32,000 nt of DNA from Candidatus Saccharimonadota bacterium (GCA_039920285.1 JBDSDX010000001.1:660001-692000); one strand, 5' to 3'. Shown: positions 1 to 27,216, counted from the stretch's first letter. The notes: generated from the sequence alone by a model not told the origin. Numbers and translations are program-made.

Positions 1-397
1 TTGGCGTACTAGCGCTTCCGCCGACTCCACTGGCACCACCACCGCCTGAGGCAGGGTATTGACCGCTATACTGTCCTGCAGTACCACCACTATTTCCTTG
101 GCTTGGAATCCCAGTTGCAAGATATGCAGTAGACGACGCGCCGCGCCCACTTCCGCCGCCGCTTCCGCCGTTCGATCCATTTGCCCAATTTCCCGCACCA
201 CCACCTACAGCCGTGAGACCAAAGACGGTTGTATCGACACCGTTCGTTTGCGCAGCTCCGCCAGCGCCAATCGTGACACTATAGAGACCGACTGAAGTAA
301 TTGCAGGTGTTGACGTCAAAACGCCACCAGCACCGCCTCCACCTGAAGCCCCCGCAATGCCACCGCCGCCACCACCGCCGACAAGCAATACATCTAC
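1..397 (-). repeat. Glycine-rich module 3, truncated by the window edge (VDVLLVGGGGGGGIAGASGGGGAGGV ...)
   Basis: Same opening landmarks as modules 1 and 2. It continues beyond position 1. Confidence 0.6.
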
Positions 398-3300
398 TGA
401 AGGATAAAGCACACCAATAATGAAGGTGCCGCTCGAATAGAAGGTGTGGACGGTTTGGCCACCCACTGTCGTGATTGTTCCACCTGTTGCGGTCATACTT
501 CCGATCGGATAGGAGATAACGACAATACCAGACCCGCCATTACCACCTTTATTAGTGAGGTTATAGTGTGCGCCACCACCGCCACCGCCACCAGTGTTCG
601 CCCCAGCATTTCCACCAGGCGTATTGGCCTGTGCAACCGTCGCGCCACCACCGCCAGGAGAACCAGCGTTCAAGCCTGCACCACCTGTTGTTACCCCGAT
701 CGCGCCACCGCCACCGCCACCATTTCCACCGTTTCCACCAATACCTGTGTAGCCAGATCCGCCACCACCACCGCCCCAGTAATAATTAGGTCCGAGAATA
801 TTGTTTGCGACACCAATGCCACCTGTGCCAGGGTTAATTGTGCCTGCACCTCCTGCGCCGCCACCGCCACCAGGGTAATAACAACCTCCCGCAGCGCCAC
901 CCTTAAATCCTTGTCCAAAGACTCCGACAGCTGAATACACTTGGTTACATCCAGCCGTTCCACCGCCTGAAGCACCTGAGAAAGGAGCATTTCCTAATGA
1001 GCCGTCCGTTGAGTAGTCTGAGCCACCACCGCCGCCACCAAAAGCGGTGATAGAACCGAATGTCGAATTTCCTCCACTCTTACCCGATAACTGAGCTGCG
1101 CCCGCAAGCGCTCCAGGACCACCCACTCCAACCACAACGTTAACAGATCCCCGTGCTGTGTATGTCCCGTTATATATGACGCCGCCACCGCCACCGCCAC
1201 CGCCCATCTCACCGCCGCCACCGCCACCGCCACCAACTACCAAAGCAGAAACGGTTCCCGTAGCGAGTGCGTCAGGTGTCGGAACGAAGGACGCATCGTA
1301 CGAATAATAATCTTTGCTTGGCAACCAGACATTGTTCGTCGACCAGTTATAGTCGGTCTGACTGAGCACTAAATTATCTGAGGCACGCCACGCCGTGAAG
1401 TAGAAGTAAGGACTTCCTCCGGCTGCTCTCTGTTTCACAGCAAAACTATGGTCACCTGGTTGCAACGTGACCGAATATCGAGTCACAAAGGCCGAAGTTC
1501 CCGTACCAATCTTATTTCCGTCAAGAAATATTTCACAATCAAATGTACAAGCAAAGCCTATATTTACCGGCGTTGCGACTGATACTGATACCTTACGATT
1601 ATCCCTAAAGTAGGCATACCCCGTACCCGCTGCAGCGGGCGTCGTGATGCCCTTGGCGGCTAAGTTTTCAGCCCAAGCAAGGTGAGTCCATAGTCGTGCT
1701 GGTTGCCACGAGCTAGGATCGGCGTAGTAGTCTGGAGAGCTAAAATGTTCACTATCTCCTGTACTCACACGCCAGTCAGAATCAGTCACAATCAAGGGAA
1801 TACTACTATCTGACTTCTTTATTGCAGCAATAAAACGAGACGCACGAGGTTCAAATGTCTGATTCGTCAGTTCTACCACGATCGTATTACAGCCAGGGAG
1901 AAGGCCAACGGAACCAGAGCCTTGGGAGCCATCTGAATTAAATAATTTTGTCCCATTAATAAATACATCAGCTGAATCTAAATTCGACGGTGTATACGCA
2001 GTGACATTATAGGTTCCTGCTGTTGTAACACTGAAATCACGCCTAAAGTACATGACGCCTGCGTTCACAGATGCATCGGCCAAGCTAATTGATTGAGCTG
2101 ACGGCGCGACTGACAGTGTATCTTGTGCAGAGGTTCTAACAGCACTACTCCAACCCTGTGCATCACTTGTTTGACCAGTACAAAGATCGGGAATGACTGC
2201 TGATTGCGAACTTGGCTGACTAATTGTTTTCCAGACTGAGCCATTCGAACTACGCAGGATTTGAACAAACCCATTGTAGGGGATTGAGACAGCTTTACCT
2301 TGGCTTAGTACCGGCAGTCCTATACTAAAGGAGCTTCTCACATTTCCATTAACGCTCACTGAACATCGTAGGTCGATTGGACATCCTGTTGAGGTAGAAT
2401 TGATTTTAAAGTTGCCACTGCTTGTAAACTTACGAACCGTATAGATACCATTCGTCGTTGACGTACCTCCAGAGCTAGGGTCGACGACAATACCGCTGTC
2501 AGTCGGATAGGACACAATGACCACACCCTTACCGCCAGCACCGCCACTTCCGCCAGCGTAACTCCACCCAGCACCACCGCCGCCACCTGTATTTGGCGTT
2601 CCTGCAATGCCATTAATCGCACCGTTCCCGCCGCCGCCGTTTCCACCTGTGCCACCGTTCCCACCGCCGCCACCGCCACCGTAGTAAACCAATCCACCTG
2701 TAATAGTATTTACAATACCAGAGCCGCCATCACCACCTTTATTGGTTGCTACACTTGCCAAACCGACACCACCGGCACCACCGCCGCCTGATCCAGCAGC
2801 ATAGGCTGCTAGTGGGCCACCGCTGTTACCTTGGCCAGCCGTACCTGCACCTGGAGCACTCGATGAATAATAATTTTGACCGCCGCCGCCTGATCCACCT
2901 GGAAGGCCTGGACCTGCAGCAGAACCGGTTGAATAACCGCCGCCGCCGCCGCCAATCGCAGTGAGACCATTAAAGGTCGAGTTCGCACCACTAATTCCAG
3001 AGGTTGTTTGTCCAACAGCCGCACCTCCATTTCCTACAACGACAGGATAAGTACCCGCAGTAATCGTCATTGAATCATTCGAGACAACACCACCAGCACC
3101 TCCGCCACCACCGGTAGAGCCACCACCTGAACCACCACCAGCAACGACTAATACCTTAATACCCGCACCAGCAAGTTGATTGCCACTACAATCTGTGTTC
3201 GGCTGAAGCGGTTTTGCATTAGTCCACTGCGGGACGTTTCCATTTGCTGCGAGACACGCTTTTGCATAGGCAACGCCCGCTTCACCAGCCACTTGTGCGA

Positions 3301-3448
3301 GTTGGGCATAGTACTGATTCTTTAAGGCTGTTCGGATCGCAGTTGTGGCTGAAACCGCAACAACCAACACACTAATAAGGACAATTGAAGCAATCAACAC
3401 TGTTGGCAGTGCGAAACCCTTGCGAAAGACTGATTGCCTGTACTGCAT
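1..3448 (-). CDS. Giant glycine-rich repeat surface protein, 3'-partial (at least 1149 codons), with minor-pseudopilin-like N-terminal anchor
   Basis: Absent from the supplied ORF track because it has no stop inside the window. By hand translation, the minus-strand frame whose codons end at coordinates = 1 mod 3 is open from ATG (3446-3448) to position 1. An in-frame TAA lies just upstream at 3458-3460. The N-terminus MQYRQSVFRKGFALPTVLIASIVLISVLVVAV has basic residues, then G-F-A-L, then a hydrophobic helix, like PilX/GspK-type minor pilins (no Glu at +5). Three Gly-rich modules and a non-Gly spacer follow. All track ORFs within 59-3030 are other frames of this gene. Confidence 0.75.
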   Translation of the reverse strand, partial: MQYRQSVFRKGFALPTVLIASIVLISVLVVAVSATTAIRTALKNQYYAQLAQVAGEAGVAYAKACLAANGNVPQWTNAKPLQPNTDCSGNQLAGAGIKVLVVAGGGSGGGSTGGGGGAGGVVSNDSMTITAGTYPVVVGNGGAAVGQTTSGISGANSTFNGLTAIGGGGGGYSTGSAAGPGLPGGSGGGGQNYYSSSAPGAGTAGQGNSGGPLAAYAAGSGGGGAGGVGLASVATNKGGDGGSGIVNTITGGLVYYGGGGGGGNGGTGGNGGGGNGAINGIAGTPNTGGGGGAGWSYAGGSGGAGGKGVVIVSYPTDSGIVVDPSSGGTSTTNGIYTVRKFTSSGNFKINSTSTGCPIDLRCSVSVNGNVRSSFSIGLPVLSQGKAVSIPYNGFVQILRSSNGSVWKTISQPSSQSAVIPDLCTGQTSDAQGWSSAVRTSAQDTLSVAPSAQSISLADASVNAGVMYFRRDFSVTTAGTYNVTAYTPSNLDSADVFINGTKLFNSDGSQGSGSVGLLPGCNTIVVELTNQTFEPRASRFIAAIKKSDSSIPLIVTDSDWRVSTGDSEHFSSPDYYADPSSWQPARLWTHLAWAENLAAKGITTPAAAGTGYAYFRDNRKVSVSVATPVNIGFACTFDCEIFLDGNKIGTGTSAFVTRYSVTLQPGDHSFAVKQRAAGGSPYFYFTAWRASDNLVLSQTDYNWSTNNVWLPSKDYYSYDASFVPTPDALATGTVSALVVGGGGGGGGEMGGGGGGGGVIYNGTYTARGSVNVVVGVGGPGALAGAAQLSGKSGGNSTFGSITAFGGGGGGSDYSTDGSLGNAPFSGASGGGTAGCNQVYSAVGVFGQGFKGGAAGGCYYPGGGGGAGGAGTINPGTGGIGVANNILGPNYYWGGGGGGSGYTGIGGNGGNGGGGGGAIGVTTGGAGLNAGSPGGGGATVAQANTPGGNAGANTGGGGGGGAHYNLTNKGGNGGSGIVVISYPIGSMTATGGTITTVGGQTVHTFYSSGTFIIGVLYPSVDVLLVGGGGGGGIAGASGGGGAGGVLTSTPAITSVGLYSVTIGAGGAAQTNGVDTTVFGLTAVGGGAGNWANGSNGGSGGGSGRGASSTAYLATGIPSQGNSGGTAGQYSGQYPASGGGGASGVGGSASTP
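506..1252 (-). repeat. Glycine-rich module 2 (VSALVVGGGGGGGG ... NKGGNGGSGIVVISYP)
   Basis: Same landmark order as module 1, read by hand. Confidence 0.7.
2504..3160 (-). repeat. Glycine-rich module 1 of the giant ORF (IKVLVVAGGGSGGG ... GGAGGKGVVIVSYP)
   Basis: Hand translation. Shared landmarks with modules 2 and 3: LVVGGGGGGG start, Y-x-V-x-VG-xGG, GxNSTF, A-x-GGGGG, NTGGGGG, and the ending GG(S/K)G(I/V)V(I/V)(I/V)SYP. Confidence 0.7.
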
Positions 3449-3570
3449 TATAATAAGTTAACCCTACTCAAATTCTTGTCATTATTGTACCATAAGCGAA
3501 TTGAGTAAACATATTTACGAGCAACAATATTTACTGTATAATGTATAGTGAAAGACGAGAGGGAATTATT

Positions 3571-3849
3571 ATGACAACGGCAACTCCACAAATCACCATT
3601 TACCGCACAAGTTGGTGTGCATTCTGTCATACCGAGATGCAATGGCTTGATCGTTTAGGTATTCCATATATTGCGAAAGATATCGAAGCTGATCCAGCTG
3701 CTAACGAAGAGTTGATGGCGAAAATCAATAATGACTTCCGCGGTGTTCCTGTGACTGATATCGCTGGTGATATCGTTCTCGGATTTGACCGACCAAAGAT
3801 TCAAGATGCCATTAAGGCACACGGCATTCAACCCATAACGACTAAATAA
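3571..3849 (+). CDS. Glutaredoxin/NrdH-like thiol-disulfide oxidoreductase
   Basis: Track ORF 3541-3849. Contains TIYRTSWCAFCH (CxxC), a GVPV cis-Pro motif and a thioredoxin-fold length. I prefer the ATG at 3571, which is preceded by GAGAGGGA (Shine-Dalgarno-like), over the ATG at 3541. Confidence 0.8.
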   Translation: MTTATPQITIYRTSWCAFCHTEMQWLDRLGIPYIAKDIEADPAANEELMAKINNDFRGVPVTDIAGDIVLGFDRPKIQDAIKAHGIQPITTK

Positions 3850-5154
3850 TTACGCTTTTTTAGATCGAGTTCGTCGCTTCTTGACGGGAACTCGGCGACT
3901 GAGGACGTCGGTATAGACGTCCTCTAATTTTTTGGACTGAGCAAATTCAGTGTACTTCGAAGCAAGTTTCTTGCTGTTTTCGCCGTACGTTTTACGGAGT
4001 TTATCGTCATTCAGGAGTGTAATGATGGCATCAGTCAGGCTAGCGATAGTATCCTTTGCGACGATACCGTTTTCACCGTCGATGACTACCTGCGTCACCC
4101 CAGGGTCAGTAATCACAAACGGAAGACTCGCGTGTGCGGCTTCGTGTAAAACAAGACCTTGCGTATCAGTCAGAGAAGGGAAGGCAAAAATATCACCACT
4201 CGCGTAGGCTACACCAAGTTGTTGACGGGGGATGCGTCCCGTAAAAGTGATCCGATCGCCGACGCGTGACTTGCGAGCTTTGAGCTCAAGCGTTTCTTTA
4301 TATTCGAAGTCTCCCACGAACAGAAGACGAGCCTTTGGACGAGTCTTCAACACACGCTTAATTGTTGGGATGAGTATATCAAGATTTTTTTCAGCTGCCA
4401 GACGGCCAACATACAGCACTACTTCATCGTCTTCGGCGATACCATACGTTTGTTTGAATGCTTTTATTTGAGTGGTTGTAGGTTTCGGTAACGCATCAAC
4501 ACCAGTAGGGATCATTTTGACGTCATAGTCATATCCATTGCTCCAACTTTCAAGCTGCTTCTTGCTCTTCGTACTAAGGGCAATGACTGCATCCGCACGG
4601 CTAAAGATCATTGCTAAGAGGCTCTCAACAATGTCGCGTCCCCATTTAGACATTGCGCGACGAGGGCGATAAATTTTCAAAAGTTCTCTCACGTCTTTTC
4701 CTTTAAAACGGAAGGTTGCGGGGAATGAAAGGGCAAGAATCAACAAGCCAGGTACAACGCCCGGGTAGTGTTGAATATACTGAGCGACATCCGTACTGTG
4801 CTGCACAACAAGAGGTACTTTCATTTTTTCTGAAGCGTACACTCCCATGAGGCCCACTTGTCCGGGTGTCATAATTTGAATAATGTCGAGATTTAATTTC
4901 TTAATCTTATGCAGTTCGCGAGGAGGAAAAACGAGAGTTAGTCCATAGTCTTCGAAGAAAGCATCAGGAATACTCGGGAAACGAATAACATGATCTTCAC
5001 GATCTTTCTTCTTCACAGGGCGGACGCTTTCGCCAGCACAAAAAATAAAGACCTCGTGACCCATCGCCTCGAGGTCTTTTTTCATTATTTGAATAACAAA
5101 AGTGATGCCCGTGACGGCTGGAAGGTAACTATCAGTAAATAAGCCAATGCGCAT
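3850..5154 (-). CDS. GT4 glycosyltransferase, alpha-monoglucosyl-diacylglycerol-synthase-like
   Basis: The N-terminus MRIGLFTDSYLPAVTGITFVI closely resembles the Firmicute/Mollicute 1,2-diacylglycerol 3-glucosyltransferase family as I remember it. The C-terminal GT1-type domain has EAAHASLP. There is a basic C-terminal tail. Its stop abuts the convergent glutaredoxin stop (3847-3852, TAATTA). Confidence 0.8.
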   Translation of the reverse strand: MRIGLFTDSYLPAVTGITFVIQIMKKDLEAMGHEVFIFCAGESVRPVKKKDREDHVIRFPSIPDAFFEDYGLTLVFPPRELHKIKKLNLDIIQIMTPGQVGLMGVYASEKMKVPLVVQHSTDVAQYIQHYPGVVPGLLILALSFPATFRFKGKDVRELLKIYRPRRAMSKWGRDIVESLLAMIFSRADAVIALSTKSKKQLESWSNGYDYDVKMIPTGVDALPKPTTTQIKAFKQTYGIAEDDEVVLYVGRLAAEKNLDILIPTIKRVLKTRPKARLLFVGDFEYKETLELKARKSRVGDRITFTGRIPRQQLGVAYASGDIFAFPSLTDTQGLVLHEAAHASLPFVITDPGVTQVVIDGENGIVAKDTIASLTDAIITLLNDDKLRKTYGENSKKLASKYTEFAQSKKLEDVYTDVLSRRVPVKKRRTRSKKA

Positions 5155-5189
5155 ATGTTAGATATATTATAGCAGACGATTCTCGCGTG

Positions 5190-6395
5190 CTAGTTCGACT
5201 TTGCTTTCTTTAAAGCTAATTCATAGAAGGCGACGTACTGGTCAAGAGTGTTCTGTTGTGAATGCTGATCAACAACAAGTTTCCGCGAGTATGCGCCGAA
5301 TTTCTTGCGAAGACCTGCGTCGTTATATAATGCTTCGATCGCTTTCGCACACGCAGTTGTGTCGTCGAGCTTCAACAAGAAACCATTCTTACCATCGTGA
5401 CACAGTTCGCGCAGGGCAGCGATGTCGACTGCAATTATTGGCAACCCGCAGGCTTCAGCTTCAAGTGTCACAATACTTTGCAGTTCAGCAGGCGAGGTAA
5501 TACCGAAGAATTCTGCGGTCTGGAACAATGCGCGTTTTTCTTCTTCAGTCACACGACCGAGGAAGTGAATTCGTTTTTCAACGCCCAGCTCTTCAGCTAA
5601 CTCTTTGAGTTCGTTCGAACGGTTACCCGTACCTGCGATGACAAAATCGAGTTCAGGTGTACTGTGAGCTGCAAGAGCAAAACTTCGAATCAGCATATCT
5701 ATGCGTTTCTCAGCATTGACGCGTCCGAGGTATATAAAGTAGCGTTCCGAAAGATGAAATCGTTCTAACTCTTTTTTTGAATCAGACATTACTTTAGCAG
5801 GATGAAAGAAGTCGGTATCAACGCCGTTACTGATAGCAAATAATGGCTGTTTTAATCCATTATCCTTTAAAAGATCAGCCGCCGTTTGGGTCGGTGTCGA
5901 AACAGCCAAGAATTTATCATGAAATTTCACCAGTGATTTCCAGAAGTGCGCATTGACGCGTTTCGACTCCATAACAGTCTTTGGGAGGCTCATAAGGAAG
6001 TTCTCAGGCATGATGTGATTGGTCGCAACGACAGGAATATGTCGCTTTTTTGCTTCCTTTAGCAGCGACTGTGCAGCCACACCGATCGTATGAACGTGAA
6101 TAATGTCAGGTTTGAATTCATCCAATGCTTTACGAACTTGCGAACCTGCGTAATAACTAATTTTGTAGTCTTTATTGAGCGGCAGACGAACTGATGCAGT
6201 GCGGTAAATATGTGACCCGCCATCTTTCTCTTCGTACGCACGCCACGATTTACCGGGTACAACAAGACGAACTTCATGACCCGCTGCGATCAGTTGATGG
6301 ACCAATCGACGCTCAAAAATAGCACCGCCATCATTGTTTGGCCAGTAACTTTCGCTCGACATAAGTATTTTCATAAACTCTTTCAAGTGTACCAT
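5190..6395 (-). CDS. GT4 glycosyltransferase (second member of a glycolipid-synthase-type pair)
   Basis: GT4 layout: N-terminal SSESYWPNNDGG and a C-terminal E-x7-E-like region (TLEAEACGLPIIA). The likely true start is ATG at 6374 (MKILMSSE), preceded by GAAAGAG. Confidence 0.8.
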   Translation of the reverse strand: MVHLKEFMKILMSSESYWPNNDGGAIFERRLVHQLIAAGHEVRLVVPGKSWRAYEEKDGGSHIYRTASVRLPLNKDYKISYYAGSQVRKALDEFKPDIIHVHTIGVAAQSLLKEAKKRHIPVVATNHIMPENFLMSLPKTVMESKRVNAHFWKSLVKFHDKFLAVSTPTQTAADLLKDNGLKQPLFAISNGVDTDFFHPAKVMSDSKKELERFHLSERYFIYLGRVNAEKRIDMLIRSFALAAHSTPELDFVIAGTGNRSNELKELAEELGVEKRIHFLGRVTEEEKRALFQTAEFFGITSPAELQSIVTLEAEACGLPIIAVDIAALRELCHDGKNGFLLKLDDTTACAKAIEALYNDAGLRKKFGAYSRKLVVDQHSQQNTLDQYVAFYELALKKAKSN

Positions 6396-10500: not shown

Positions 10501-10587
10501 TGGTGGGCAAGGGGGGAATTGAACCCCCACTCTCCTAAGAGAACCAGATTTTGAGTCTAGCGCGTCTACCAATTCCGCCACTCGCCC
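10501..10587 (-). tRNA. tRNA-Leu (anticodon CAA), CCA encoded
   Basis: The reverse complement folds by hand. Acceptor stem is GGGCGAG/CTTGCCC. D arm is GCG-GAATTGGTAGA-CGC. Anticodon arm is CTAGA-CTCAAAA-TCTGG. There is a long variable arm. T arm is GGGGG-TTCAATT-CCCCC, followed by A-CCA. Confidence 0.9.
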
Positions 10588-10669
10588 AATCATCACTTCT
10601 TATAAAGGCTCCACCGATTCGGTGGAAGTACTAATGTATTGTACAATAGATGCCAGTAGGATTAAAGAT

Positions 10670-11896
10670 ATGAACCCCGATACAAGCAGTCCTGGTGGAG
10701 ATCTGCCGGCCGAAACGCCGTCCGATACATCAACATCAAAAAACTCACCTAACATCCAATCCAACGCGGCGAATGTCATTCGTTCGCAGATTAGTGCCCT
10801 CTATAATGACCCTGTACGACCCACAGACCATCATGACGTCGGACAAACCGCTGTCGCTGCAACACAACAACCAGCCGACACAAACCCTTACCACCGTACC
10901 CACAGCTCACACCCAAAGCCGGAAGCAGAGCAGTGGAAAGAATACCACACAGCGTGGCAAGGCTATTACCAGAAATATTACGAGAGTTATTACACTCACC
11001 AAGCTTCACCTGCCGAAGGTACCTCTTCCGCTACCGCTAATGGAGCTGACGGCAACGAACACTATTTCTCAAGCCAACCTGAAGCAGTGCAAACAACTGA
11101 AGACCTATCGAAAGACCAGGCCCTCTTGGAGCTTCGTCAAAAACTGCTTGGCCGGGTTTCAGAATCGGCACGCAAAGTACGTAAAAGTCGCCACTTCGTT
11201 CCAATCCTCGCTGCCATCTTAGTAGTGCTTGGATTCGTTTTCATTCAGTACAACCAAATCTTCGTCGCCAACGTCCAAGCGTATGTTTCACCAGGCAGTA
11301 TCGACCCACAAAATATCGTCGTTGATCCCACCAATGACGTTCAAGTAAGTGCTGAATCACGTCTCATTATCCCAAAAATTAACGTTGATGTTCCTGTATT
11401 TTACGACGTCGGCTCAGACTATAACTCTCAAATGGCAGCGATGAACAATGGAGTTGCTCACTTCGCAATACCAGGCGCCAGTAGCCATCCAGGTGAAGTC
11501 GGCAATACTGCCATCGCAGGGCACAGTAGTAACGACTTGTTTGATAGTGGCGATTACAAATTTATCTTTGCACAACTTGAAAAACTTGCCCCTGGCGATA
11601 GTATCTATGCCAACTACAAGAGTATTCGTTACACCTATGTCATCACAAAGGTTGAAACAGTCAAGCCCACAGAGATCAATAAGCTCGTGTATCCGACGAC
11701 AAAGCCTGTCCTGACACTTATTACCTGTACGCCACTTGGAACGGCTCTAAACCGCCTCCTTGTCACTGCAGAACAGGTCAGTCCAGACCCTGCGTCTGCG
11801 ACAGTTGCTCCTGAGACCCAAACAACGAGTAAGCAAACGAGTATCCCTGGCACAACACCAACATTGCTCGAAAAACTATTCGGCGCAAAAGGCTAA
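10670..11896 (+). CDS. Sortase-family transpeptidase with long N-terminal cytoplasmic extension
   Basis: Catalytic landmarks are AIAGHS (His), LTLITC (Cys) and NRLLV (Arg). One TM helix (FVPILAAILVVLGFVFIQY). The track starts at GTG 10622; ATG 10670 (MNPDTSS) is more plausible. Confidence 0.85.
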   Translation: MNPDTSSPGGDLPAETPSDTSTSKNSPNIQSNAANVIRSQISALYNDPVRPTDHHDVGQTAVAATQQPADTNPYHRTHSSHPKPEAEQWKEYHTAWQGYYQKYYESYYTHQASPAEGTSSATANGADGNEHYFSSQPEAVQTTEDLSKDQALLELRQKLLGRVSESARKVRKSRHFVPILAAILVVLGFVFIQYNQIFVANVQAYVSPGSIDPQNIVVDPTNDVQVSAESRLIIPKINVDVPVFYDVGSDYNSQMAAMNNGVAHFAIPGASSHPGEVGNTAIAGHSSNDLFDSGDYKFIFAQLEKLAPGDSIYANYKSIRYTYVITKVETVKPTEINKLVYPTTKPVLTLITCTPLGTALNRLLVTAEQVSPDPASATVAPETQTTSKQTSIPGTTPTLLEKLFGAKG

Positions 11897-13393
11897 TTAA
11901 TCTAAGATCATTTTGACACGCTGGAGCTGATAGGTCGCTCCAGACTTTGTAATACTATAGAGATAGCGTCCGTTCTGGCTCAGCGTGGCATCGAAGCCAG
12001 GTTCTGCCGCACCAATGACGTGCACATTTGTACCGTCAAACTCTCGTATCGAAAGGTGACCATCGTAGACAGACCACACATAGGCACCGTCAAGCCAGTT
12101 CAGGGTATAGGCTTTTGATTCACTGGTTTCGACAGTCGCATTGGTTTGTCGTTGGTATTCAATTTCATAACTAATAAAACCAAGTCCTGAACGAATAATA
12201 AGATAATCGCCATCGAGGCTAAAGCTCAATTGGTCAACCGCTGCTGGTGCAGTAAACGTCGCATAAGTTTGGAGGCTGGTTGATTCATCAGCACTCGAAC
12301 TTGGGTAGCGACCCTTTAATACGGTCACTGTCAGTCCTTCAACTATGGCCACGTAATCATCACTAAAGTAACGCGTCGCGTCGATCAGAAGAGGAGTATC
12401 GAAGCTTGTACGGCGCAAAATGTGTGACGATTCATCACCTTCACGGTAGATACCCGCAACTTGTTTCGTTGAATCAGCAGGATCAATACCTATATACGTG
12501 ATAATGTTCGTTTCAAATAAATCAAAGTTTTTGACGTTTGTGACAAGACCGCGAGAAATGGTTGCTGCCCCAAGATCGAGTTTACGAATCACGCCGTCGT
12601 TCGTCAGACCATACAGAATATTTCCACTCGTACCCGAGAACTTTAGGTCACTCAAGCCAATACTGAGTAAGCGAGTAATATTGACACTTGTGCCGACATC
12701 TTGTGTATCGACGACAATCCATTCAGTTTTCTCGTTATAGACATGTTTTACTAAGACAAAGCGACCGCCTTCATCCCATTGATTTAGAGTAAATGTGTGT
12801 GTCACACCGACAGTAGTGGCATCACTGTAAGTACCGACAGGTAAAGTAATCGTTGATGTTTGCGGATTCTGTGAACGAAGATCAACGAGCTGAAAACTAG
12901 GTATCTCAGCTTTTTGCTGAAGTATGAGCCATTTATAATCTGGTGATGCTTTTTCTCCGACAAGTGAAGGGTAGGTTGAGATTTTGTCCGTCTGGAGGTT
13001 TTTTGGGACCAACCGAATATAGTCGAGCCACGTTAATGTTCCCGCTTTAACCGTCAATGATTTTGCCCATTGTTCATAACCATCGCGCGACACAATAAAG
13101 GTATGGCTCCCGGCAATAACAGTTTGCTTGGTTGCCGTTCGTGAGCCGATAGTTTTGCCGTCAATCGTGACATAGGCGCCACTCGGTGTTGAATCAAATT
13201 GGAGGAGTGCACCCTGTTCAAGGCGACCTTTTTGACTATCAAGTCGATATCCTAAAATAAACAGCACGGCACCAGTCATGATAGTTAAAATAGCCACAAT
13301 CATAACGATTGATACGATGGTGCGCCGGATGAGTAGCTGCTTTTTTGAGGGTCGTCGAAACATTATTACGCTTATTATAGCAATCTTGTACAC
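11897..13393 (-). CDS. PEGA-domain membrane-anchored protein with beta-rich C-terminal region
   Basis: N-terminal TM helix. PEGA motif region TPSGAYVTIDGKTIG ... VSRDGYEQW. The long beta-strand-rich remainder may be propeller-like. The track start is GTG; the alternative ATG at 13363 lies 10 nt after a TGCTATAAT box. Confidence 0.75.
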   Translation of the reverse strand: MYKIAIISVIMFRRPSKKQLLIRRTIVSIVMIVAILTIMTGAVLFILGYRLDSQKGRLEQGALLQFDSTPSGAYVTIDGKTIGSRTATKQTVIAGSHTFIVSRDGYEQWAKSLTVKAGTLTWLDYIRLVPKNLQTDKISTYPSLVGEKASPDYKWLILQQKAEIPSFQLVDLRSQNPQTSTITLPVGTYSDATTVGVTHTFTLNQWDEGGRFVLVKHVYNEKTEWIVVDTQDVGTSVNITRLLSIGLSDLKFSGTSGNILYGLTNDGVIRKLDLGAATISRGLVTNVKNFDLFETNIITYIGIDPADSTKQVAGIYREGDESSHILRRTSFDTPLLIDATRYFSDDYVAIVEGLTVTVLKGRYPSSSADESTSLQTYATFTAPAAVDQLSFSLDGDYLIIRSGLGFISYEIEYQRQTNATVETSESKAYTLNWLDGAYVWSVYDGHLSIREFDGTNVHVIGAAEPGFDATLSQNGRYLYSITKSGATYQLQRVKMILD

Positions 13394-15953: not shown

Positions 15954-17048
15954 ATGAAGCAACATAAACAGGACCCAGTGGGCCCAAAAACTCCAAATTG
16001 GTTCCGTCGCCACCGAAAGTTAGCGATTCTTCTCAGCATCGTGACTGTTCTCATCATTGGTGGGGGAGTTACTGCTGCTTTATTTGTTTTCAATCAAAAA
16101 CCAAAAGCCGACACACCAGCAAAAGTCACTAAACCAGTTGTAACACCCGATGCACCAAAATTTTACTCACCTTTAACAGGTAACCTCGTCACTGATCAAG
16201 CAGCCACCACACAACCTGTAACCGCTATCATGATCGAAAACAGTCCCGACGCACGTCCACAATCTGGACTCAAAGATAGCGGTGTCGTTTTTGAGGCCAT
16301 TGCCGAAGGTGGTATCACGCGCTTCCTCGTTTTATACCAAGAACAAAAACCACAGCTCATCGGACCCGTTCGAAGTGTTCGCATGTATTATGTTGATTGG
16401 CTCGCAGCCTTTAATGCCAGCGTTGCCCACGTTGGCGGAAGCGCGGCCGCATTAGCCGAAGTCAGAAATGGTAGCTACCGTGACATCGACCAATTCTTTA
16501 ACGGTAGCTATTACTGGCGCGCGACCGATCGCTATGCACCCCATAACGTCTACACCAGCTTTGAAAAACTCGATGCTCTGAATGCCACTAAAGGCTACAC
16601 GAGCTCAACATTCACAGGGTTTACCCGTAAAGACTCGAAGGCTGCAAAAGTCACAACTGCCAGCAAAATCGACGTGACCATTAGTAGTTTTCTATATAAC
16701 AGTTCGTACACATACAACACAACGACCAATACCTACGACCGCTCAGAGGGTGGCGCAGCCCACGCAGATAGAGAGGGTGGTCAGATCAGTCCGCGCGTTG
16801 TTATTGTCATGAAAGTCCCAGAACGTCTCGTATTTGAAGATGGCTATCGAGAGCAGATCGACGCTATCGGGAGCGGTGTTGCCGACATCTTTCAAGATGG
16901 AGAAGTAACAGAAGTTACTTGGAGTAAAACAAGTAAGACTGATCAATTAATGTTCACTGGTGCTGACGGCAAAGATGTCCCGCTCGCCCGAGGACAAACG
17001 TGGATCACCTCAGTTTCTAGTACAACAGGAGGCGTCACATGGCAGTAG
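15954..17048 (+). CDS. DUF3048 (YerB-like) domain protein, membrane-anchored
   Basis: N-terminal TM helix. PVTAIMIENSPDARPQSGLKDSGVVFEAIAEGGITRFLVLY matches my memory of the DUF3048 core. Confidence 0.8.
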   Translation: MKQHKQDPVGPKTPNWFRRHRKLAILLSIVTVLIIGGGVTAALFVFNQKPKADTPAKVTKPVVTPDAPKFYSPLTGNLVTDQAATTQPVTAIMIENSPDARPQSGLKDSGVVFEAIAEGGITRFLVLYQEQKPQLIGPVRSVRMYYVDWLAAFNASVAHVGGSAAALAEVRNGSYRDIDQFFNGSYYWRATDRYAPHNVYTSFEKLDALNATKGYTSSTFTGFTRKDSKAAKVTTASKIDVTISSFLYNSSYTYNTTTNTYDRSEGGAAHADREGGQISPRVVIVMKVPERLVFEDGYREQIDAIGSGVADIFQDGEVTEVTWSKTSKTDQLMFTGADGKDVPLARGQTWITSVSSTTGGVTWQ

Positions 17049-18640
17049 ATCCTCAGCTCGACACGGCGCCAAAGCTTGCAAAAGATTTCTGGCCATCCTT
17101 CCGACGAAGCACCGCGATTCTTATCGTTGTTATGCAACTATTAATCCTCCTTGGTATTGCAACTGTGTTATATTTCATCGGTTTTTATGAAAGGAACCCT
17201 CTGGCATTCGCTGGGACCTTAGTCGCCCAAACGATTCTTGGTGTCATCACCTCAGCAATTATCTACAAGTTCGTGAGTCGTCCGATCAAAGATCTTCTCG
17301 CCGCTGTTGTCCACGTCGCTGGTGAACCAACCTCCAGTACGCCACCAAACCCAAATGACCCACGGTTCAAAAAAAGTGGTTTCAAAAACGTTCTTCAAAC
17401 AATCTACCAACTCGCGAGCAACGACAGTACTGCACCTGCGACAACGCCGGTCATCGCTTCAACACCAAGTGACGGAACTGCGGTCATCGCAACACCTGTC
17501 ACACCAGCTGTGACAAACAGCCTTATCGAAAAAGCTCTTAACGACACAATCTGCGGATTCGTCGTCATGAATCATGACCGAAAGATTACCTATTCAAACA
17601 AAGCAGCACCAATCCGTGTCGATCAAGAAAATACATCATCTCTCATGCTCCTGTTCAACGGAGAGGACACACTCGACGTCTGGTTGGCGGATTGTGACAA
17701 GAATGCCGTCCACGCAGAAAAAACTTGGTCACGTGTCCCAAACAAATTGCCCGACGAAGAAGATCGTCGCTTCTTTGACGTCATCGCATCGTATGACAAG
17801 GGGGCTGAAAGCGAAGTCGTCTTGACCCTTATTGACCGTACCGGCCTCTACAGTGTCGGTGAAGAAGAGCTCGACTTCATTGCCTTTGCTGCTCACGAAC
17901 TTCGTGGACCAATCACGGTAATTCGTGGCTACCTTGACGTGCTCGAAGACGAATTGAAAGACGTATTGAAAGATGATCAAGCAGAACTCTTCCGCCGACT
18001 CACCGTCTCTGCAAACCGCCTCTCGGGCTACATTAATAACATTCTCAACACATCTCGTTACGACCGTCGTCACCTAAAAATGCACTTAGCAGAAATTACC
18101 GTTGCCAGCGTCTACGATACGATACGAGACGACATGCAAATGCGTGCCAGCGCCCAAAATCGCCTACTCAGTGTCACCATCCCAGATGGTCTCCCCACAA
18201 TCGCTGCCGACAACGCCAGCCTCAGCGAGGTGTTTGGTAACCTCATCGATAATGCTATCAAATACAGCAACGAAGGCGGCGCTATCAATGTTGTTGCCAG
18301 CGTCAAAGGCGATACTGTCGAAGTAGCGATTGAGGACCACGGCATAGGTATGCCCGGAAACGTTGTGAGCAACTTGTTCCAGAAGTTTTACCGATCTCAC
18401 CGTTCACGCGAGACCGTTGCCGGCACAGGTATTGGACTATACATCTCCAAGGCTATCGTCGAATCGCATGGCGGAAACATTAGCGTTCGTAGTGAGGAGG
18501 GTCGAGGCTCAACCTTTATCGTCTCACTGCCAACCTTCAAGTCAGTTGCGGATAAGCTCAAAGAAGGCAATAATAGTAACGAACAACTAATAGAACAAAA
18601 CAGTGGCTGGATCAAAAACCACTCAATGTATCGGGGATAA
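17039..18640 (+). CDS. Sensor histidine kinase (HisKA + HATPase_c)
   Basis: H-box FAAHELRGPITVI, N-box NLIDNAIKYS, G-boxes IEDHGIGM and GTGIGLYISK. Two N-terminal TM segments. Overlaps the previous gene by 10 nt. Confidence 0.9.
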   Translation: MAVDPQLDTAPKLAKDFWPSFRRSTAILIVVMQLLILLGIATVLYFIGFYERNPLAFAGTLVAQTILGVITSAIIYKFVSRPIKDLLAAVVHVAGEPTSSTPPNPNDPRFKKSGFKNVLQTIYQLASNDSTAPATTPVIASTPSDGTAVIATPVTPAVTNSLIEKALNDTICGFVVMNHDRKITYSNKAAPIRVDQENTSSLMLLFNGEDTLDVWLADCDKNAVHAEKTWSRVPNKLPDEEDRRFFDVIASYDKGAESEVVLTLIDRTGLYSVGEEELDFIAFAAHELRGPITVIRGYLDVLEDELKDVLKDDQAELFRRLTVSANRLSGYINNILNTSRYDRRHLKMHLAEITVASVYDTIRDDMQMRASAQNRLLSVTIPDGLPTIAADNASLSEVFGNLIDNAIKYSNEGGAINVVASVKGDTVEVAIEDHGIGMPGNVVSNLFQKFYRSHRSRETVAGTGIGLYISKAIVESHGGNISVRSEEGRGSTFIVSLPTFKSVADKLKEGNNSNEQLIEQNSGWIKNHSMYRG

Positions 18641-18642
18641 CC

Positions 18643-19026
18643 ATGGCAATTAAAACAATTCTCATCATTGAAGATGACCGCTTTATCGGTGAAATGTACG
18701 TCCGTAGTCTCAAAAAGGCCGGTTTCGAAGTCGACTGGATGGTTGACGGCAACGACGGCCTCATCGCAGCCCGCAACAAACCATACGACCTCATCTTGCT
18801 CGATGTCATGCTTCCAGAACGACGTGGCACAGAAATCCTCGAAGCCCTCCGCGGAGGCAAAGAAGATCTCATCCCTCATAGTAGAGTAGTCGTCTTAACA
18901 AACTTTGAACAAGACGACGAATCACGACTCGCCATGGAAAAACACGCCGACGCATACCTTATCAAAGCCGAAATCACCCCAAGCAAACTACTGTCTGTCA
19001 TCGAGCAACTCGCGCCGCCGGCCTAG
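18643..19026 (+). CDS. Stand-alone receiver-domain response regulator (CheY-like, no output domain)
   Basis: 127 aa. Contains IIEDD, LILLDVMLP and an LIKAE-type conserved Lys region. Starts 2 nt after the kinase stop. Confidence 0.9.
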   Translation: MAIKTILIIEDDRFIGEMYVRSLKKAGFEVDWMVDGNDGLIAARNKPYDLILLDVMLPERRGTEILEALRGGKEDLIPHSRVVVLTNFEQDDESRLAMEKHADAYLIKAEITPSKLLSVIEQLAPPA

Positions 19027-19152: not shown

Positions 19153-19227
19153 GGTCCCATCGTCTAACGGTTAGGACACCAGGTTCTCATCCTGACAATC
19201 CGGGTTCGATTCCCGGTGGGATCACCA
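19153..19227 (+). tRNA. tRNA-Glu (anticodon CUC), CCA encoded
   Basis: Hand fold: acceptor GGTCCCA/TGGGATC (one G-U pair), anticodon arm CCAGG-TTCTCAT-CCTGA, T arm CCGGG-TTCGATT-CCCGG, then A-CCA. Confidence 0.9.
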
Positions 19228-24189: not shown

Positions 24190-26163
24190 TTGAGCTTGAA
24201 TCGATTCTGGCACCGCCGCATTTATGAGGTGGCTTTTTTGCTTTCGATTGCAATCGTCATATTGTTTGTCGTGCCTCTGCTTACAAACATTGCCCCGACT
24301 GGCTTGTTTAATGTCAGCCTGTGGGTTGCCGTCGGCGCCGGTATTACGGCCATCGCTAGCATCGTGTGTTATCTTGTGACACCTGAAAAACCCGGCTATC
24401 TCTATGCGCTTATTATTTATCTGTTATTCACCGCAACTGTCGGACTTTTGGTCATACAAACAGGGGGTACGAGCTCTCCGTTCATCGCCGTATGGATGCT
24501 CGTGTCGTTCTTCGCTGGTGTCTTCGCCTTCTGGGGACTTGTACCAATTGTCCTTGCTTCAGGTACCTTTATCGCTGTTGAATACCTCAGTAGTCATTTT
24601 TCAGCCGGCCTCGTGGCAGTTGTGGTGTTTACCTCGATCGTTCCTCTTATTATTAGTATGTTCGTCTGGCGCAACCAGAGTGATGACACAACATCAAAAG
24701 ACGTCAAAAATCTTGCCAATCAACTCTCAGAAGTCGCCAGTAAATCTGAAATAGTCATTAATGCCATCGGTGACGGAGTGATCGCTGTCGACGTTCAAGG
24801 TGTTATCCAACTCATCAACCCAGCCGCCCAAGAAATCCTCGGATGGGGGAAACAAGACGCACTTATGCTCAATTACAAAACAATTCTGAAATTGTCAGAT
24901 TTGAATAATAAAGAACTTGACCCATCCCAAGATCCCATCCAACAAGTGCTTAATACCAATCAAGAAGCACGGTCAAATGCCATCACCATCGTGACTAAGA
25001 CCGGGAAGAAAATCACCAGCTCAATTGTAGTTTCTCCCGTTGGTGATGCCGGTAACGGTGTGATTGCGGTGTTTCGTGATGTGACGAAAGAAAAAGCCGA
25101 AGAACGCGAACAAGCTGAATTTATTAGCACCGCCAGTCACGAAATGCGCACTCCGGTTGCCTCAATCGAAGGATATCTCGGCCTCGCTTTGAACCCAAAC
25201 ACTGCCCAAATTGACGAAAAGGCCCGCGACTTCATTATGAAAGCCCACGAAGCCGCCCAGCACCTTGGTCGTCTCTTCCAGGACCTTCTCGATGTCTCTA
25301 AGTCTGAAGATGGTCGTATGACCAACATGCAACGTGTTGTCGACATGGCAAACTTTACTGGCACTATCGTTCAAGGTCTTCAAGCCAAAGCAGCCGAAAA
25401 AGGCCTTCAGCTTGTCTATACACCGACTGAAGCAAGTGGTCAAAAGCAAATCACCCCTGTTTATTTCGTGAACCAAGATAATGACCACATCCGCGAAGTT
25501 CTCGACAACCTGATCGAAAACGCGATTAAATATACACCCACAGGCCAAGTTCTCGTTGACATCCAAGGCTCTGAAGACAAAGTCACCGTCAGTGTTAAAG
25601 ATACCGGCCTCGGCATTCCTCCTGAAGATGTCTCGCATCTTTTCCAAAAGTTCTACCGCGTCGACAACGCCGATCGTCAATCAATCGGTGGGACTGGTCT
25701 TGGACTCTATTTATCTCGTCGTTTGGCTGAAGCGATGGGCGGACGTCTCTGGGTTGAAAGTGTCTATAAAACGGGAAGTACCTTCTTTCTCGAACTTCCT
25801 CGTATTACGAGTGAAGAGGCAGACCGTTTCAAACAACAGCAAACAGCCCAAGCCCAAAAAGCCGCTGCCGACGCCTTGGTTGCCCCAGCCCCTGCTGCAC
25901 CAGAAATGCCACCAGTCATGGGACCATTACCGCCAGCTCGACCGTCTGTGTCTGGTGACATCAAGCCTGCGACCACTGTTCCAAGAGGTGAGAGTTTGAG
26001 TCGTGAACAAATTGCTGAACATGTTCGTCAACTTCAAGCAATGGCTCGTCAACAACAGCCAGTTGCTCAGCGACCAGCCGATGCAACAACACCAGCTCCT
26101 GCTGCGCCGACCCCAGTATCGACACCCGCGGCCACACCGCCAGTGCAAGCTGGACAACCGTAA
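24190..26163 (+). CDS. Polytopic PAS-containing sensor histidine kinase with Pro/Ala-rich C-terminal tail
   Basis: About 5-6 N-terminal TM segments. PAS-like region (INAIGDGVIAVD ... VFRDVT). H-box ASHEMRTPVASI, N-box LIENAIKYTP, G-boxes KDTGLGIP and GTGLGLYLSR. The tail of about 120 aa is rich in P/A/Q. The start is uncertain (TTG 24190; GTG 24229 is an alternative). Confidence 0.88.
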   Translation: MSLNRFWHRRIYEVAFLLSIAIVILFVVPLLTNIAPTGLFNVSLWVAVGAGITAIASIVCYLVTPEKPGYLYALIIYLLFTATVGLLVIQTGGTSSPFIAVWMLVSFFAGVFAFWGLVPIVLASGTFIAVEYLSSHFSAGLVAVVVFTSIVPLIISMFVWRNQSDDTTSKDVKNLANQLSEVASKSEIVINAIGDGVIAVDVQGVIQLINPAAQEILGWGKQDALMLNYKTILKLSDLNNKELDPSQDPIQQVLNTNQEARSNAITIVTKTGKKITSSIVVSPVGDAGNGVIAVFRDVTKEKAEEREQAEFISTASHEMRTPVASIEGYLGLALNPNTAQIDEKARDFIMKAHEAAQHLGRLFQDLLDVSKSEDGRMTNMQRVVDMANFTGTIVQGLQAKAAEKGLQLVYTPTEASGQKQITPVYFVNQDNDHIREVLDNLIENAIKYTPTGQVLVDIQGSEDKVTVSVKDTGLGIPPEDVSHLFQKFYRVDNADRQSIGGTGLGLYLSRRLAEAMGGRLWVESVYKTGSTFFLELPRITSEEADRFKQQQTAQAQKAAADALVAPAPAAPEMPPVMGPLPPARPSVSGDIKPATTVPRGESLSREQIAEHVRQLQAMARQQQPVAQRPADATTPAPAAPTPVSTPAATPPVQAGQP

Positions 26164-26214
26164 GCACAAGCACTATAGTATTTTTAACAAGCATTAGATA
26201 GAATAAGGGTGAAT

Positions 26215-27216
26215 ATGGCAAAAATTTTACTGGTAGAGGACGACAAGAGCCTAAGAGAAATCTACGGCGTCCGCCTCATGGCCGAAGGCTACGAAATCGT
26301 TTCAGCAGGTGATGGGGAAGAAGCCCTCGCTATTGCTATTAAGGAAGCGCCGGCATTGATCGTCAGTGACGTCATGATGCCAAAAATTAGTGGCTTCGAC
26401 ATGCTCGACATTCTTCGAAGTACCACTGAGACAAAAGACATCAAGGTAATTATGATGACCGCGCTTTCCAGCGACGACCAACGTGCCCGCGGTGAAGCTC
26501 TTGGAGCTGACCGTTATCTCGTCAAGTCTCAAGTCGGCATCGAAGATGTCGTCCGTACTGTTCACGACGTCCTTGGTGACGGTGTTGCCGGATCTGCGCC
26601 TGCAGCTCCTAGCTTTTCATCGACTCCTGCACAACCTGGTAACCCCTCGGCACCTGTTATGCCTGCGCCTGTTGCAGCACCCGCTCCTATGGCTCCAATG
26701 CCTGCTATGCCGGCACCATTACCCAATCCTGTTGCTATGCCCGCCCCAGTTACTTCGGACCCTGTAGCTCCTGCTCCCGTCGAAGCACCACTTCCTCCTG
26801 TTATTAATATTCCGACTGAAGAACCAGTTATGGCTCCGCCTGCACCAATTCCCGCACCAACACCAGAGTTTGTTATGCCTGAACCTGCCATGCCTGCACC
26901 AGTAGAAATGCCAGCACCTATCGCTCCAACTCCCGCCGCTCCAGCACCGTTTGTTGCGCCAGCGCCCTCACCATTCGCACTTCCTGAGCCAACTGCGCCA
27001 TTTTCTTCACCAGCCCCAGCATCTCTCGGCGATCGCATCATCGCACCATTGAATCCTAACCTTCAGGTTGGTGCTCCCAATGATATCGCGACACAAATGA
27101 ACCAAGAGCTGGCTGCCCAAATGGCACCACTTCCTCCAGCACCTGCTCCAGAGCCACCATTGCCTCCACAGCCACCTGTTCCTCCTATGCCGCCACAACC
27201 AGGCGCAGCTCTGTAA
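26215..27216 (+). CDS. Response regulator: receiver domain plus roughly 200-aa Pro/Ala/Met-rich tail, no recognisable output domain
   Basis: ILLVEDD, LIVSDVMMPKISG and YLVKSQ define the REC domain. The remainder is low-complexity (MPAPVAAPAPMAPMPAMPAPLPNPVAMPAPV ... PPLPPQPPVPPMPPQPG). ATG 26215 is preferred over the track GTG at 26209. Confidence 0.85.
   Translation: MAKILLVEDDKSLREIYGVRLMAEGYEIVSAGDGEEALAIAIKEAPALIVSDVMMPKISGFDMLDILRSTTETKDIKVIMMTALSSDDQRARGEALGADRYLVKSQVGIEDVVRTVHDVLGDGVAGSAPAAPSFSSTPAQPGNPSAPVMPAPVAAPAPMAPMPAMPAPLPNPVAMPAPVTSDPVAPAPVEAPLPPVINIPTEEPVMAPPAPIPAPTPEFVMPEPAMPAPVEMPAPIAPTPAAPAPFVAPAPSPFALPEPTAPFSSPAPASLGDRIIAPLNPNLQVGAPNDIATQMNQELAAQMAPLPPAPAPEPPLPPQPPVPPMPPQPGAAL

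Follow-up and report, generated by a model that had tools for sequence, protein, structure and literature searches.

How do ultrasmall episymbionts recognise and hold their host bacteria? The process is largely obscure, and type IV pili with large PilX minor pilins are the only players with genetic support, in one oral strain. The question is raised anew by a 32,000-nucleotide stretch of DNA from Candidatus Saccharimonadota bacterium (GCA_039920285.1 JBDSDX010000001.1:660001-692000), hereafter the window, whose left end encodes a very large glycine-rich protein on the minus strand. A preliminary description of this gene, made from the sequence alone, had proposed that it carries three Gly-rich modules on a pilin-like N-terminus. 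We find that the protein belongs to a discrete family that shares an N-terminal stem and carries exchangeable heads, and that genes of some of its homologues lie next to those of canonical minor pilins. We give roughly even odds (about 0.5) to the reading that it is a PilX-type modular surface adhesin of the pilus tip, built on a PilX/GspK-type stem that lacks the glutamate found at position +5 (Glu+5 or E5) of canonical pilins.

The coding sequence occupies positions 1..3448 of the minus strand. It starts with an ATG at position 3448 and stays open to the left edge of the window in all 1,149 of its 1,149 codons, in agreement with the open reading frame (ORF) of at least 1,149 codons that had been read by hand. 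There is an in-frame TAA four codons 5' of the ATG, hence the start of the gene is well defined. Of the 1,282 amino acids (aa) of the full protein, the window encodes 1-1149, and the 133 at the C-terminus lie beyond its left edge. These were recovered by a search in a collection of 5.8 billion proteins, which returned an identical full-length match (P0001, 1,282 aa) on a 795-kb contig, ending in ...TFTTSGTFSVTALH. A link with the sortase encoded in the window had been suggested, by way of an LPXTG sorting signal. This was refuted by the complete C-terminus (...GGRTIHTFTTSGTFSVTALH), which holds no LPXTG-like signal. The motif was equally absent from the rest of the Gly-rich protein, from a PEGA-domain protein and from the other window ORFs that we checked.

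The part of the protein that is most conserved is its N-terminus. It reads MQYRQSVFRKG↓FALPTVLIASIVLISVLVV (the arrow marks the proposed cleavage site) and continues into a Cys-containing segment (C65, C87). A hydrophilic leader up to a Gly is thus followed by a hydrophobic run, as in class III signal peptides, whose leader has Gly or rarely Ala as its last residue and whose run spans about 20 residues (MQYRQSVFRKG↓FALPTVLIASIVLISVLVVAV). The leader itself (aa 1-11, 3416..3448, minus strand) is basic and putatively of this type, with cleavage proposed between G11 and F12. The first part of the stem follows (aa 12-95, 3164..3415, minus strand), with the hydrophobic segment FALPTVLIAS..., a long helix and a Cys65...Cys87 loop up to ...TDCSGN. 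A leader was found in 114 of 120 homologues: it has 3-44 aa (median 12), is basic (mean 3.2 K+R vs 0.2 D+E) and is not conserved (2.3-3.8 bits). The entropy falls from these values to about 0 exactly at the -1/+1 border. Position -1 is always G (67) or A (47), positions +1 to +5 are invariably FALPT (114/114), and the consensus extends to FALPT(V/I)LIAS. Position +5 is therefore Thr in all 114 sequences and never the Glu of canonical pilins. Entropy per column is 0.74 bits for the stem, while other parts of the protein have 1.48 and 1.67.

The stem is a split domain. We modelled aa 1-759 with AlphaFold2 using a 72-sequence alignment (mean predicted local distance difference test, pLDDT, 88; predicted template modelling score, pTM, 0.51). 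The model has one unbroken helix of 54 residues (15-68); that of type IV pilins has about 53 and packs on an antiparallel beta-sheet. The second part of the stem lies much farther on (aa 351-415, 2204..2398, minus strand) and consists of a Cys pair and a beta-block (VNGNVRSSFS...LRSSNGSVWK), predicted as beta-strands between residues 364 and 410 with pLDDT 63-85. It is conserved in all stem proteins and kept whatever the head, including those of RCC1 type and those of Actinomycetota. When the protein is aligned with stem proteins that lack the first Gly-rich module, this module appears as a clean insertion of about 255 aa between the ...TDCSGN block and the beta-block, which makes the stem a domain of about 140 residues in two pieces. 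The insertion falls at the place of the variable alpha-beta loop of type IV pilins, and GspK offers a precedent for a domain inserted in the pilin fold (PMC8179133).

We then asked what else is carried by this stem. When its profile was run against 1.84 billion proteins, it matched 776 representative clusters. Every match lay at the very N-terminus, in proteins of up to 1,861 aa. The profile also matched 117 GTDB species genomes, nearly all of Saccharibacteria. Among 75 representatives scanned with Pfam, the heads were Gly_rich_2 (20), RCC1 propellers (13), ConA-like lectin (12), fn3 (5) and phage tail collar (3) domains. Gp10_C, NHL/SGL propellers, fibrinogen-C, CBM_4_9 and an ALK/LTK-type glycine-rich domain were also found. 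All these heads are of binding type. Conversely, 118 of 120 RCC1/ricin homologues have the stem (median E = 6e-29). Across the loci analysed, the strings of domains range from N-M to N-G-M-G-G-G-G. The contact or adhesion role that had been proposed for the protein is plausible in view of its lectin-like middle domains, described below, and of the exclusively binding-type heads found on the stem elsewhere. Some members of this family depart further from the window protein: some orthologues (P0064, P0073, P0075, P0087) add fibrinogen-C and fibrillar-collagen-C (COLFI) domains, and the protein with the Pfam ALK_LTK_GRD domain has a second, unrelated polyglycine-rich fold on the same stem.

Stem genes recur beside canonical pilins. 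In four loci (L065, L068, L089 and L090), a stem gene neighbours the same two types of canonical E5 minor pilins, with the N_methyl domain confirmed in L065 and L068. In L065, a 313-aa stem protein (Collar + Gp10_C) ends a co-directional run of pilin-motif genes, preceded by a 284-aa pilin-motif ORF, by a 758-aa N_methyl pilin with Ig and ConA-like domains and, farther upstream, by two smaller N_methyl pilins. In L068, four N_methyl pilins flank a 753-aa stem protein made of a ricin lectin and an RCC1 propeller. In L089 and L090, two canonical E5 pilins of 140 aa (...G↓FSAIELL) and 286 aa (...G↓FTLIEMM) come directly after the stem gene, which is of RCC1 type. The motif of the shorter pilin type is ...G↓F(S/T)A(I/V)ELL and that of the longer ...G↓FTL(I/V)EM. 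The product names given by JGI to two RCC1/ricin homologues point the same way, P0238 being called PilX and P0232 PilV.

The family is also present in a few Actinomycetota. Gulosibacter macacae YIM 102482-1 (NZ_RQVS01000021.1, locus L087, 9881-10783) encodes a stem-family protein with three canonical pilin ORFs nearby, and a metagenome-assembled genome (MAG) of Pseudonocardiaceae (L080, 8086-10005) encodes one with an RCC1-like head. The GC content of these high-GC genes is 0.61 and that of their loci 0.63-0.65; since genes and loci match, the actinobacterial stem genes are native and do not come from contamination by Saccharibacteria. The known hosts of Saccharibacteria belong to this same phylum, and it would be worth looking at whether the stem was inherited from a common ancestor or exchanged between these bacteria.

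The head of the window protein contains three Gly-rich modules, all on the minus strand. Module 1 (aa 96-350, 2399..3163), a Gly_rich_2 domain with a closing beta-hairpin, is the one inserted in the stem domain. It matches PF21722 at aa 96-314 and phrog_2295 with E = 4e-44, and is modelled with pLDDT above 90. Module 2 (aa 733-1013, 410..1252) matches phrog_2295 with E = 1.5e-34, aligns with modules 1 and 3, and shows the same strand pattern in the model. Module 3 (aa 1017-1282), delimited by the alignment of the modules and by the model, is cut by the window edge, so that only aa 1017-1149 are encoded there (2..400). The Pfam match of the protein to Gly_rich_2 (PF21722) extends over four stretches and scores 141.3 bits (gathering cut-off 24.3, E = 6e-41). 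In the PHROGs database the modules belong to phrog_2295, a family listed as of 'unknown function'.

The motifs that had been read in the modules are all present: starts of the form LVVAGGG or LLVGGGG, ends of the form GKGVVIVSYP, GSGIVVISYP or GSGIVIISYP (that of module 3 lying outside the window, whose edge falls at aa 1149), and the GxNSTF and NTGGGGG landmarks in between. The modules are 49-51% identical in pairwise comparisons and in register, or 27% identical once Gly-Gly columns are removed. Smith-Waterman scores between modules exceed those of composition-preserving shuffles by z = 17-19. Their mutual similarity, which had been noticed by eye, is thus confirmed by these scores and by a Gly_rich_2 match far above the cut-off. 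Yet the modules are not contiguous, as they had been taken to be, because about 380 aa of non-Gly sequence (aa 351-732) separate the first from the second. The DNA of the modules retains only low-complexity (GGN)n similarity, with no long repeats, which indicates that the duplications are old.

The alignment of module 1 alternates between conserved Gly columns (0.67 bits) and variable segments (2.03 bits). Judged from these alignment columns, the layout appears to be that of a conserved Gly scaffold with variable surface loops. Dunne and colleagues (2018) reportedly described gp38-type adhesins in the same terms, i.e. glycine-rich motifs with hypervariable segments. DSSP assigns most of the module 1 model to neither helix nor strand. 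When this model was compared with the predicted viral structures of BFVD, it matched more than 100 phage 'glycine-rich domain-containing proteins' at a root mean square deviation of 2.3-3 Å and 40-46% identity. They come from uncultured Caudovirales, Pelagibacter phage HTVC025P, cyanophage S-TIM4, Halorubrum phage HF2 and Bathycoccus viruses, and often combine the Gly-rich domain with collagen, fn3 or ConA-like domains. Together with the PF21722 and phrog_2295 memberships, these matches bear out the suggestion that the modules are the glycine-rich domain known from phages. Direct sequence searches were less telling. Module 1 retrieved only noise from the PDB sequences, the module profile found no match there, and a tblastn search of annotated phage genomes with module 1 gave no match, probably because of low-complexity filtering.

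The solved structures give fainter matches. We made a second model for aa 720-1282 (pLDDT 73), and the best structures found for the Gly modules were 9d93, the tail tip of mycobacteriophage Bxb1 (E = 0.04-0.06), and 7ypx, the fibre of cyanophage Pam3 (E = 0.07, probability 0.91). Both are marginal, and the next match, the glycine-rich domain of ALK/LTK, has E > 1. These domains of Bxb1 and Pam3 have been described as host-recognition domains made of bundles of polyglycine/polyproline II helices that resemble the adhesin gp38 of phage S16, and regarded as candidate antireceptors or 'brush' domains (PMC13243192, PMC13243795).

The only public contig that we found through the neighbouring genes (L001, Logan SRR26386597_7472) stops 90 codons into the Gly-rich gene, and several family members from GTDB MAGs are likewise cut at contig ends. 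This suggests that short-read assemblies tend to break within the Gly-rich sequence, and such stem proteins are probably under-represented or fragmented there. The window has ORFs of 80-162 aa in other frames over the DNA of the Gly modules (446-934 on the plus strand; 691-990, 994-1236 and 2356-2697 on the minus strand). They result from the GGN/CCN periodicity, and it would be wrong to annotate them as genes.

The region between modules 1 and 2, i.e. the conserved beta-block of the stem and two duplicated beta-sandwiches, had gone unreported in the preliminary description. The first sandwich with its linker (D1, aa 416-575, 1724..2203, minus strand) is modelled with pLDDT above 90 over most of its length. 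The second (D2, aa 576-732, 1253..1723, minus strand), delimited by the model, Foldseek and hhalign, is a duplicate of the first (hhalign probability 98.8%, E = 7e-17). No Pfam model matches this region. In a Foldseek search of the PDB, the sandwiches matched the lectin of Pleurotus ostreatus (E = 4e-10, probability 1.0), which has been solved in complex with GalNAc, rhamnose and melibiose. Further matches were accessory domains from beta-galactosidases (GH35) and rhamnosidases (GH78), and RsgI sensor domains. The lectin-type matches vanish when the Gly modules are searched alone, and hence belong to the middle region. Its predicted structure fits a galactose-binding-domain-like fold, or lectin fold of the carbohydrate-binding module (CBM) type.

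The genomic location of the gene is conserved and its head is not. In 47 of the 83 loci, the operon for the F-type ATP synthase lies directly downstream of it, and many of the remaining loci are truncated contigs. Orthologues at this location differ in the number of Gly modules, with lengths of 761, 1,034, about 1,300 and 1,575 aa. In one locus (L091, 10001-12175), the slot of the window gene between glutaredoxin and the atp operon is occupied by an RCC1/ricin stem protein (P0238) with the same upstream block. At this slot, locus and stem are conserved while the head has been exchanged between lineages.

How might such a protein work? We propose that the stem, some 140 residues in aa 12-95 and 351-415, would be an E5-less pilin-like module that inserts in the membrane and whose short basic leader is probably removed at G11↓F12 by the prepilin peptidase. 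It would then join the minor-pilin complex that primes the pilus, together with partner minor pilins. Being far too bulky for the body of a type IV pilus, the protein would finally be located at its tip. From there it would present its head, i.e. two lectin/CBM-like sandwiches and three polyglycine-rich modules of the kind found in phage tail fibres and tail tips, in which the conserved Gly motifs may form the scaffold and the variable segments the surface. We infer that the head may contact glycans or envelope components of the host bacterium, and that differences in head composition between lineages could tune the host range.

Several results weigh against this proposal. The N_methyl (PF07963) hidden Markov model (HMM) had no match even at E <= 10 in the family members scanned. 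PilX_N (PF14341) matched one of 24 members, below threshold (E = 7.4), and when aligned with ten relatives it was full-length and in register in two (E = 0.009 and 0.029) at 15-16 bits for a cut-off of 25.5. The T2SSK HMM found no match among stem proteins, the prepilin-type model PRK10332 of NCBIfam was not significant (E = 0.19), and the stem profile retrieved only noise from PDB sequences. No pilin model of Pfam or NCBIfam reaches its threshold. With hhalign, the stem matched GspK (probability 0.6%) and GspG of E. coli with probabilities below 1% in both cases, and the canonical pilins encoded beside stem genes with 0.7-3.8%, against 50-91% among those pilin families themselves. The genomic context adds to these points. 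We found neither pilus genes nor any other pilin-like ORF in the 32-kb window, and no canonical pilin ORF within 10 kb of the 47 copies linked to ATP synthase. Nor does any of the 83 loci show a Walker A motif of GspE type within 10 kb; canonical pilin-motif ORFs occur in the flanks of only eight of these. Small residues at positions +21 to +23 offer a possible site for signal peptidase I (V-[ST]-[AS]↓T). The marginal matches of the Gly modules to solved phage structures (E = 0.04-0.07) and the uncertain arrangement of the domains relative to one another in the AlphaFold2 model (pTM 0.51) count on the same side.

By sequence signatures, then, the protein fails as a canonical type IV pilin, having neither Glu+5 nor an HMM match. 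Nevertheless, the stem/GspG alignment is in register at G↓F despite its probability below 1%, and GspK of E. coli, which reads QRG↓VALLIVL, likewise lacks Glu+5. The GspK/PilX-style N-terminus of the preliminary description is thus upheld by indirect evidence (the jump in conservation at the Gly/Ala-Phe border, the 54-residue helix, the homologues beside N_methyl pilins, and the names PilX and PilV assigned by JGI) and not by pilin HMMs or hhalign.

The main rival explanation is that the protein forms a membrane-anchored surface fibre outside any pilus. The N-terminus would be an uncleaved signal anchor, or the stem would dock to some other envelope structure, with the product acting as a long adhesin or spike on the cell body. 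The failure of pilin HMMs and profile comparisons agrees with this, as does a gene placed outside a pilus locus and surrounded by housekeeping genes (glutaredoxin, GT4, SmpB, ATP synthase) in 47 of 83 loci. Binding-type domains would suit any surface adhesin, and SignalP predicted no PilD signal for PilX1 and PilX2 of TM7x either (PMC11623550). Against a fibre of this sort speak the recurrence of stem genes beside the same two canonical minor pilins, the onset of conservation exactly at the Gly/Ala-Phe border, after a variable basic leader, and a helix as long as that of pilins. In TM7x, moreover, deletion of pilX2 causes a defect in host binding like that seen when pilA2, the gene of the major pilin, is deleted (PMC11623550). 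All these points bear on the window protein only indirectly. We regard such a fibre as less likely than the pilus-tip adhesin.

Secretion by the Sec pathway is unlikely. Under this explanation the first 34 residues or so would be a long signal peptide of Gram-positive type, cut at VSA↓T, and the product a soluble or wall-associated Gly-rich lectin. The basic n-region, the hydrophobic core and the small residues at +21 and +23, which fit the -3/-1 rule, are those expected of such a peptide. But the segment that would be cut off (FALPTVLIAS...) does not vary and is better conserved than anything else in the protein, which argues against a disposable signal peptide, and its hydrophobic stretch of about 27 residues runs unbroken into the 54-residue helix. 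It is very improbable that the likeness to a cellular adhesin is superficial and that we are dealing with a tail-fibre gene of a phage or prophage, or with some other mobile gene of recent arrival; this was rejected on synteny and composition. Gly_rich_2 is indeed abundant in phage proteins, and other stem proteins carry tail collar and Gp10_C domains. But dozens of species genomes retain the synteny with core genes, there are no phage genes nearby, GC is raised over the Gly codons of the modules only, the middle region being at the genome average, and the modules go back to old duplications that have left no long DNA repeats.

Returning to the pilus-tip adhesin, the closest known counterparts are PilX2 and PilX1 of TM7x (Nanosynbacter lyticus). 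PilX2, a minor pilin for which no PilD signal peptide is predicted, has an RCC1 propeller of seven blades. It is encoded with pilA2, pilV2, pilW2 and pilZ2, and both efficient host binding and competition require it; type IV pili and PilD are nearly universal in Saccharibacteria (PMC11623550). Like the TM7x proteins, the window protein is large, comes from the same phylum, and has an N-terminal helix, a non-canonical signal and lectin-like heads. The RCC1/ricin stem proteins adjoin canonical pilins, share the stem of the window protein (118/120) and in one case occupy its slot. Those of RCC1 type appear to match PilX2 by architecture and context, not by alignment. Unlike PilX2, the window protein has a head of three Gly_rich_2 modules and two CBM-like sandwiches instead of a propeller, with module 1 inside the stem, and it is not encoded in a pilin locus. 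It resembles minor (pseudo)pilins of the GspK/PilX type in general by its short basic leader with a final Gly, its hydrophobic N-terminus that lacks Glu+5, its large size, the insertion of a domain into the pilin fold, which is a putative one in the stem, and the proposed position at the tip; two smaller partner minor pilins are co-encoded in the case of the stem homologues only. It differs from GspK by the absence of significant sequence or profile similarity and by the nature of the insert, which is an alpha-domain in GspK and a Gly-rich module here.

Modular pilins have been described in Streptococcus sanguinis, where PilB (vWA) and PilC (ConA-like lectin) probably lie at pilus tips, and the class was defined by IPR012902 (PMC8179133). 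The design there is the one proposed here: binding modules are grafted on a small pilin module, which displays them, probably from the pilus tip, on a monoderm-type cell. ConA-like lectin heads also occur on our stem. However, the S. sanguinis proteins have a canonical class III signal (IPR012902/N_methyl, with Glu+5) that is absent from the stem, and the window protein has up to five extra modules, one of them an insertion and not a C-terminal graft. It would function as a modular pilin without formally being one in the sense of Raynaud et al. 2021 (PMC8179133), since it has the extra binding domains and not IPR012902/N_methyl. As a consequence, that survey would not have captured the stem family. 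The polyglycine receptor-binding domains of phages (Bxb1 9D93, Pam3 7YPX/7YFW, S16 gp38 6F45) are comparable through the Gly_rich_2/phrog_2295 membership and the superposition on predicted phage proteins. Here, in contrast, the protein that bears the domain is cellular and has a membrane or pilus stem instead of being part of a phage tail, and similarity to the solved structures is marginal.

The intergenic region 3449..3540, a presumed promoter, is shared with a divergent glutaredoxin gene (3541-3849, plus strand) that is kept in orthologous loci. Beyond it lie genes for two GT4 glycosyltransferases, SmpB, an Exo_endo_phos nuclease, a NUDIX protein and a sortase. The glutaredoxin-like and the two GT4 genes (3541-6395) are directly upstream of the adhesin gene in most orthologous loci, and their products might glycosylate the Gly-rich protein or help it mature in another way; this protein has several invariant Cys pairs, and the PilX proteins of TM7x are predicted to be O-glycosylated. 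The sortase gene (10622-11896, plus strand) adjoins that of a 498-aa PEGA-domain protein (11897-13393, minus strand), and this pair is also kept in orthologous loci. Ordinary features that have no relation to the Gly-rich gene are two pairs of histidine kinase and response regulator (17039-19026 and 24190-27216, the second kinase with a PAS domain) and two tRNA genes, tRNA-Leu(CAA) at 10501-10587 (minus strand) and tRNA-Glu(CTC) at 19153-19227 (plus strand).

That Saccharibacteria have large PilX pilins with lectin heads is an idea found in the literature. New here are the discrete stem family, the exchangeable heads at a conserved locus and the insertion of a phage-type Gly-rich module in the stem. 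The presence of Gly_rich_2/phrog_2295 on stem proteins suggests that it is a surface-recognition domain, which is a new functional hint for this family. We put forward, as a tentative extension, that a dedicated E5-less 'adaptor stem', missed by current pilin signatures, exists in Saccharibacteria and in some Actinomycetota, and that whole receptor-binding heads, including the polyglycine and tail-collar modules shared with phages, are exchanged on it at a conserved slot. The host range of an episymbiont might then be set by phage-like modular receptor-binding domains, possibly exchanged with phages, and the head could be read from the genome for host prediction. If the stem is indeed a pilus-tip adaptor, it would provide a sequence handle for the host-recognition proteins of uncultivated Saccharibacteria and a testable hypothesis on their host range, and it would link the receptor-binding modules of phages to a cellular adhesin.

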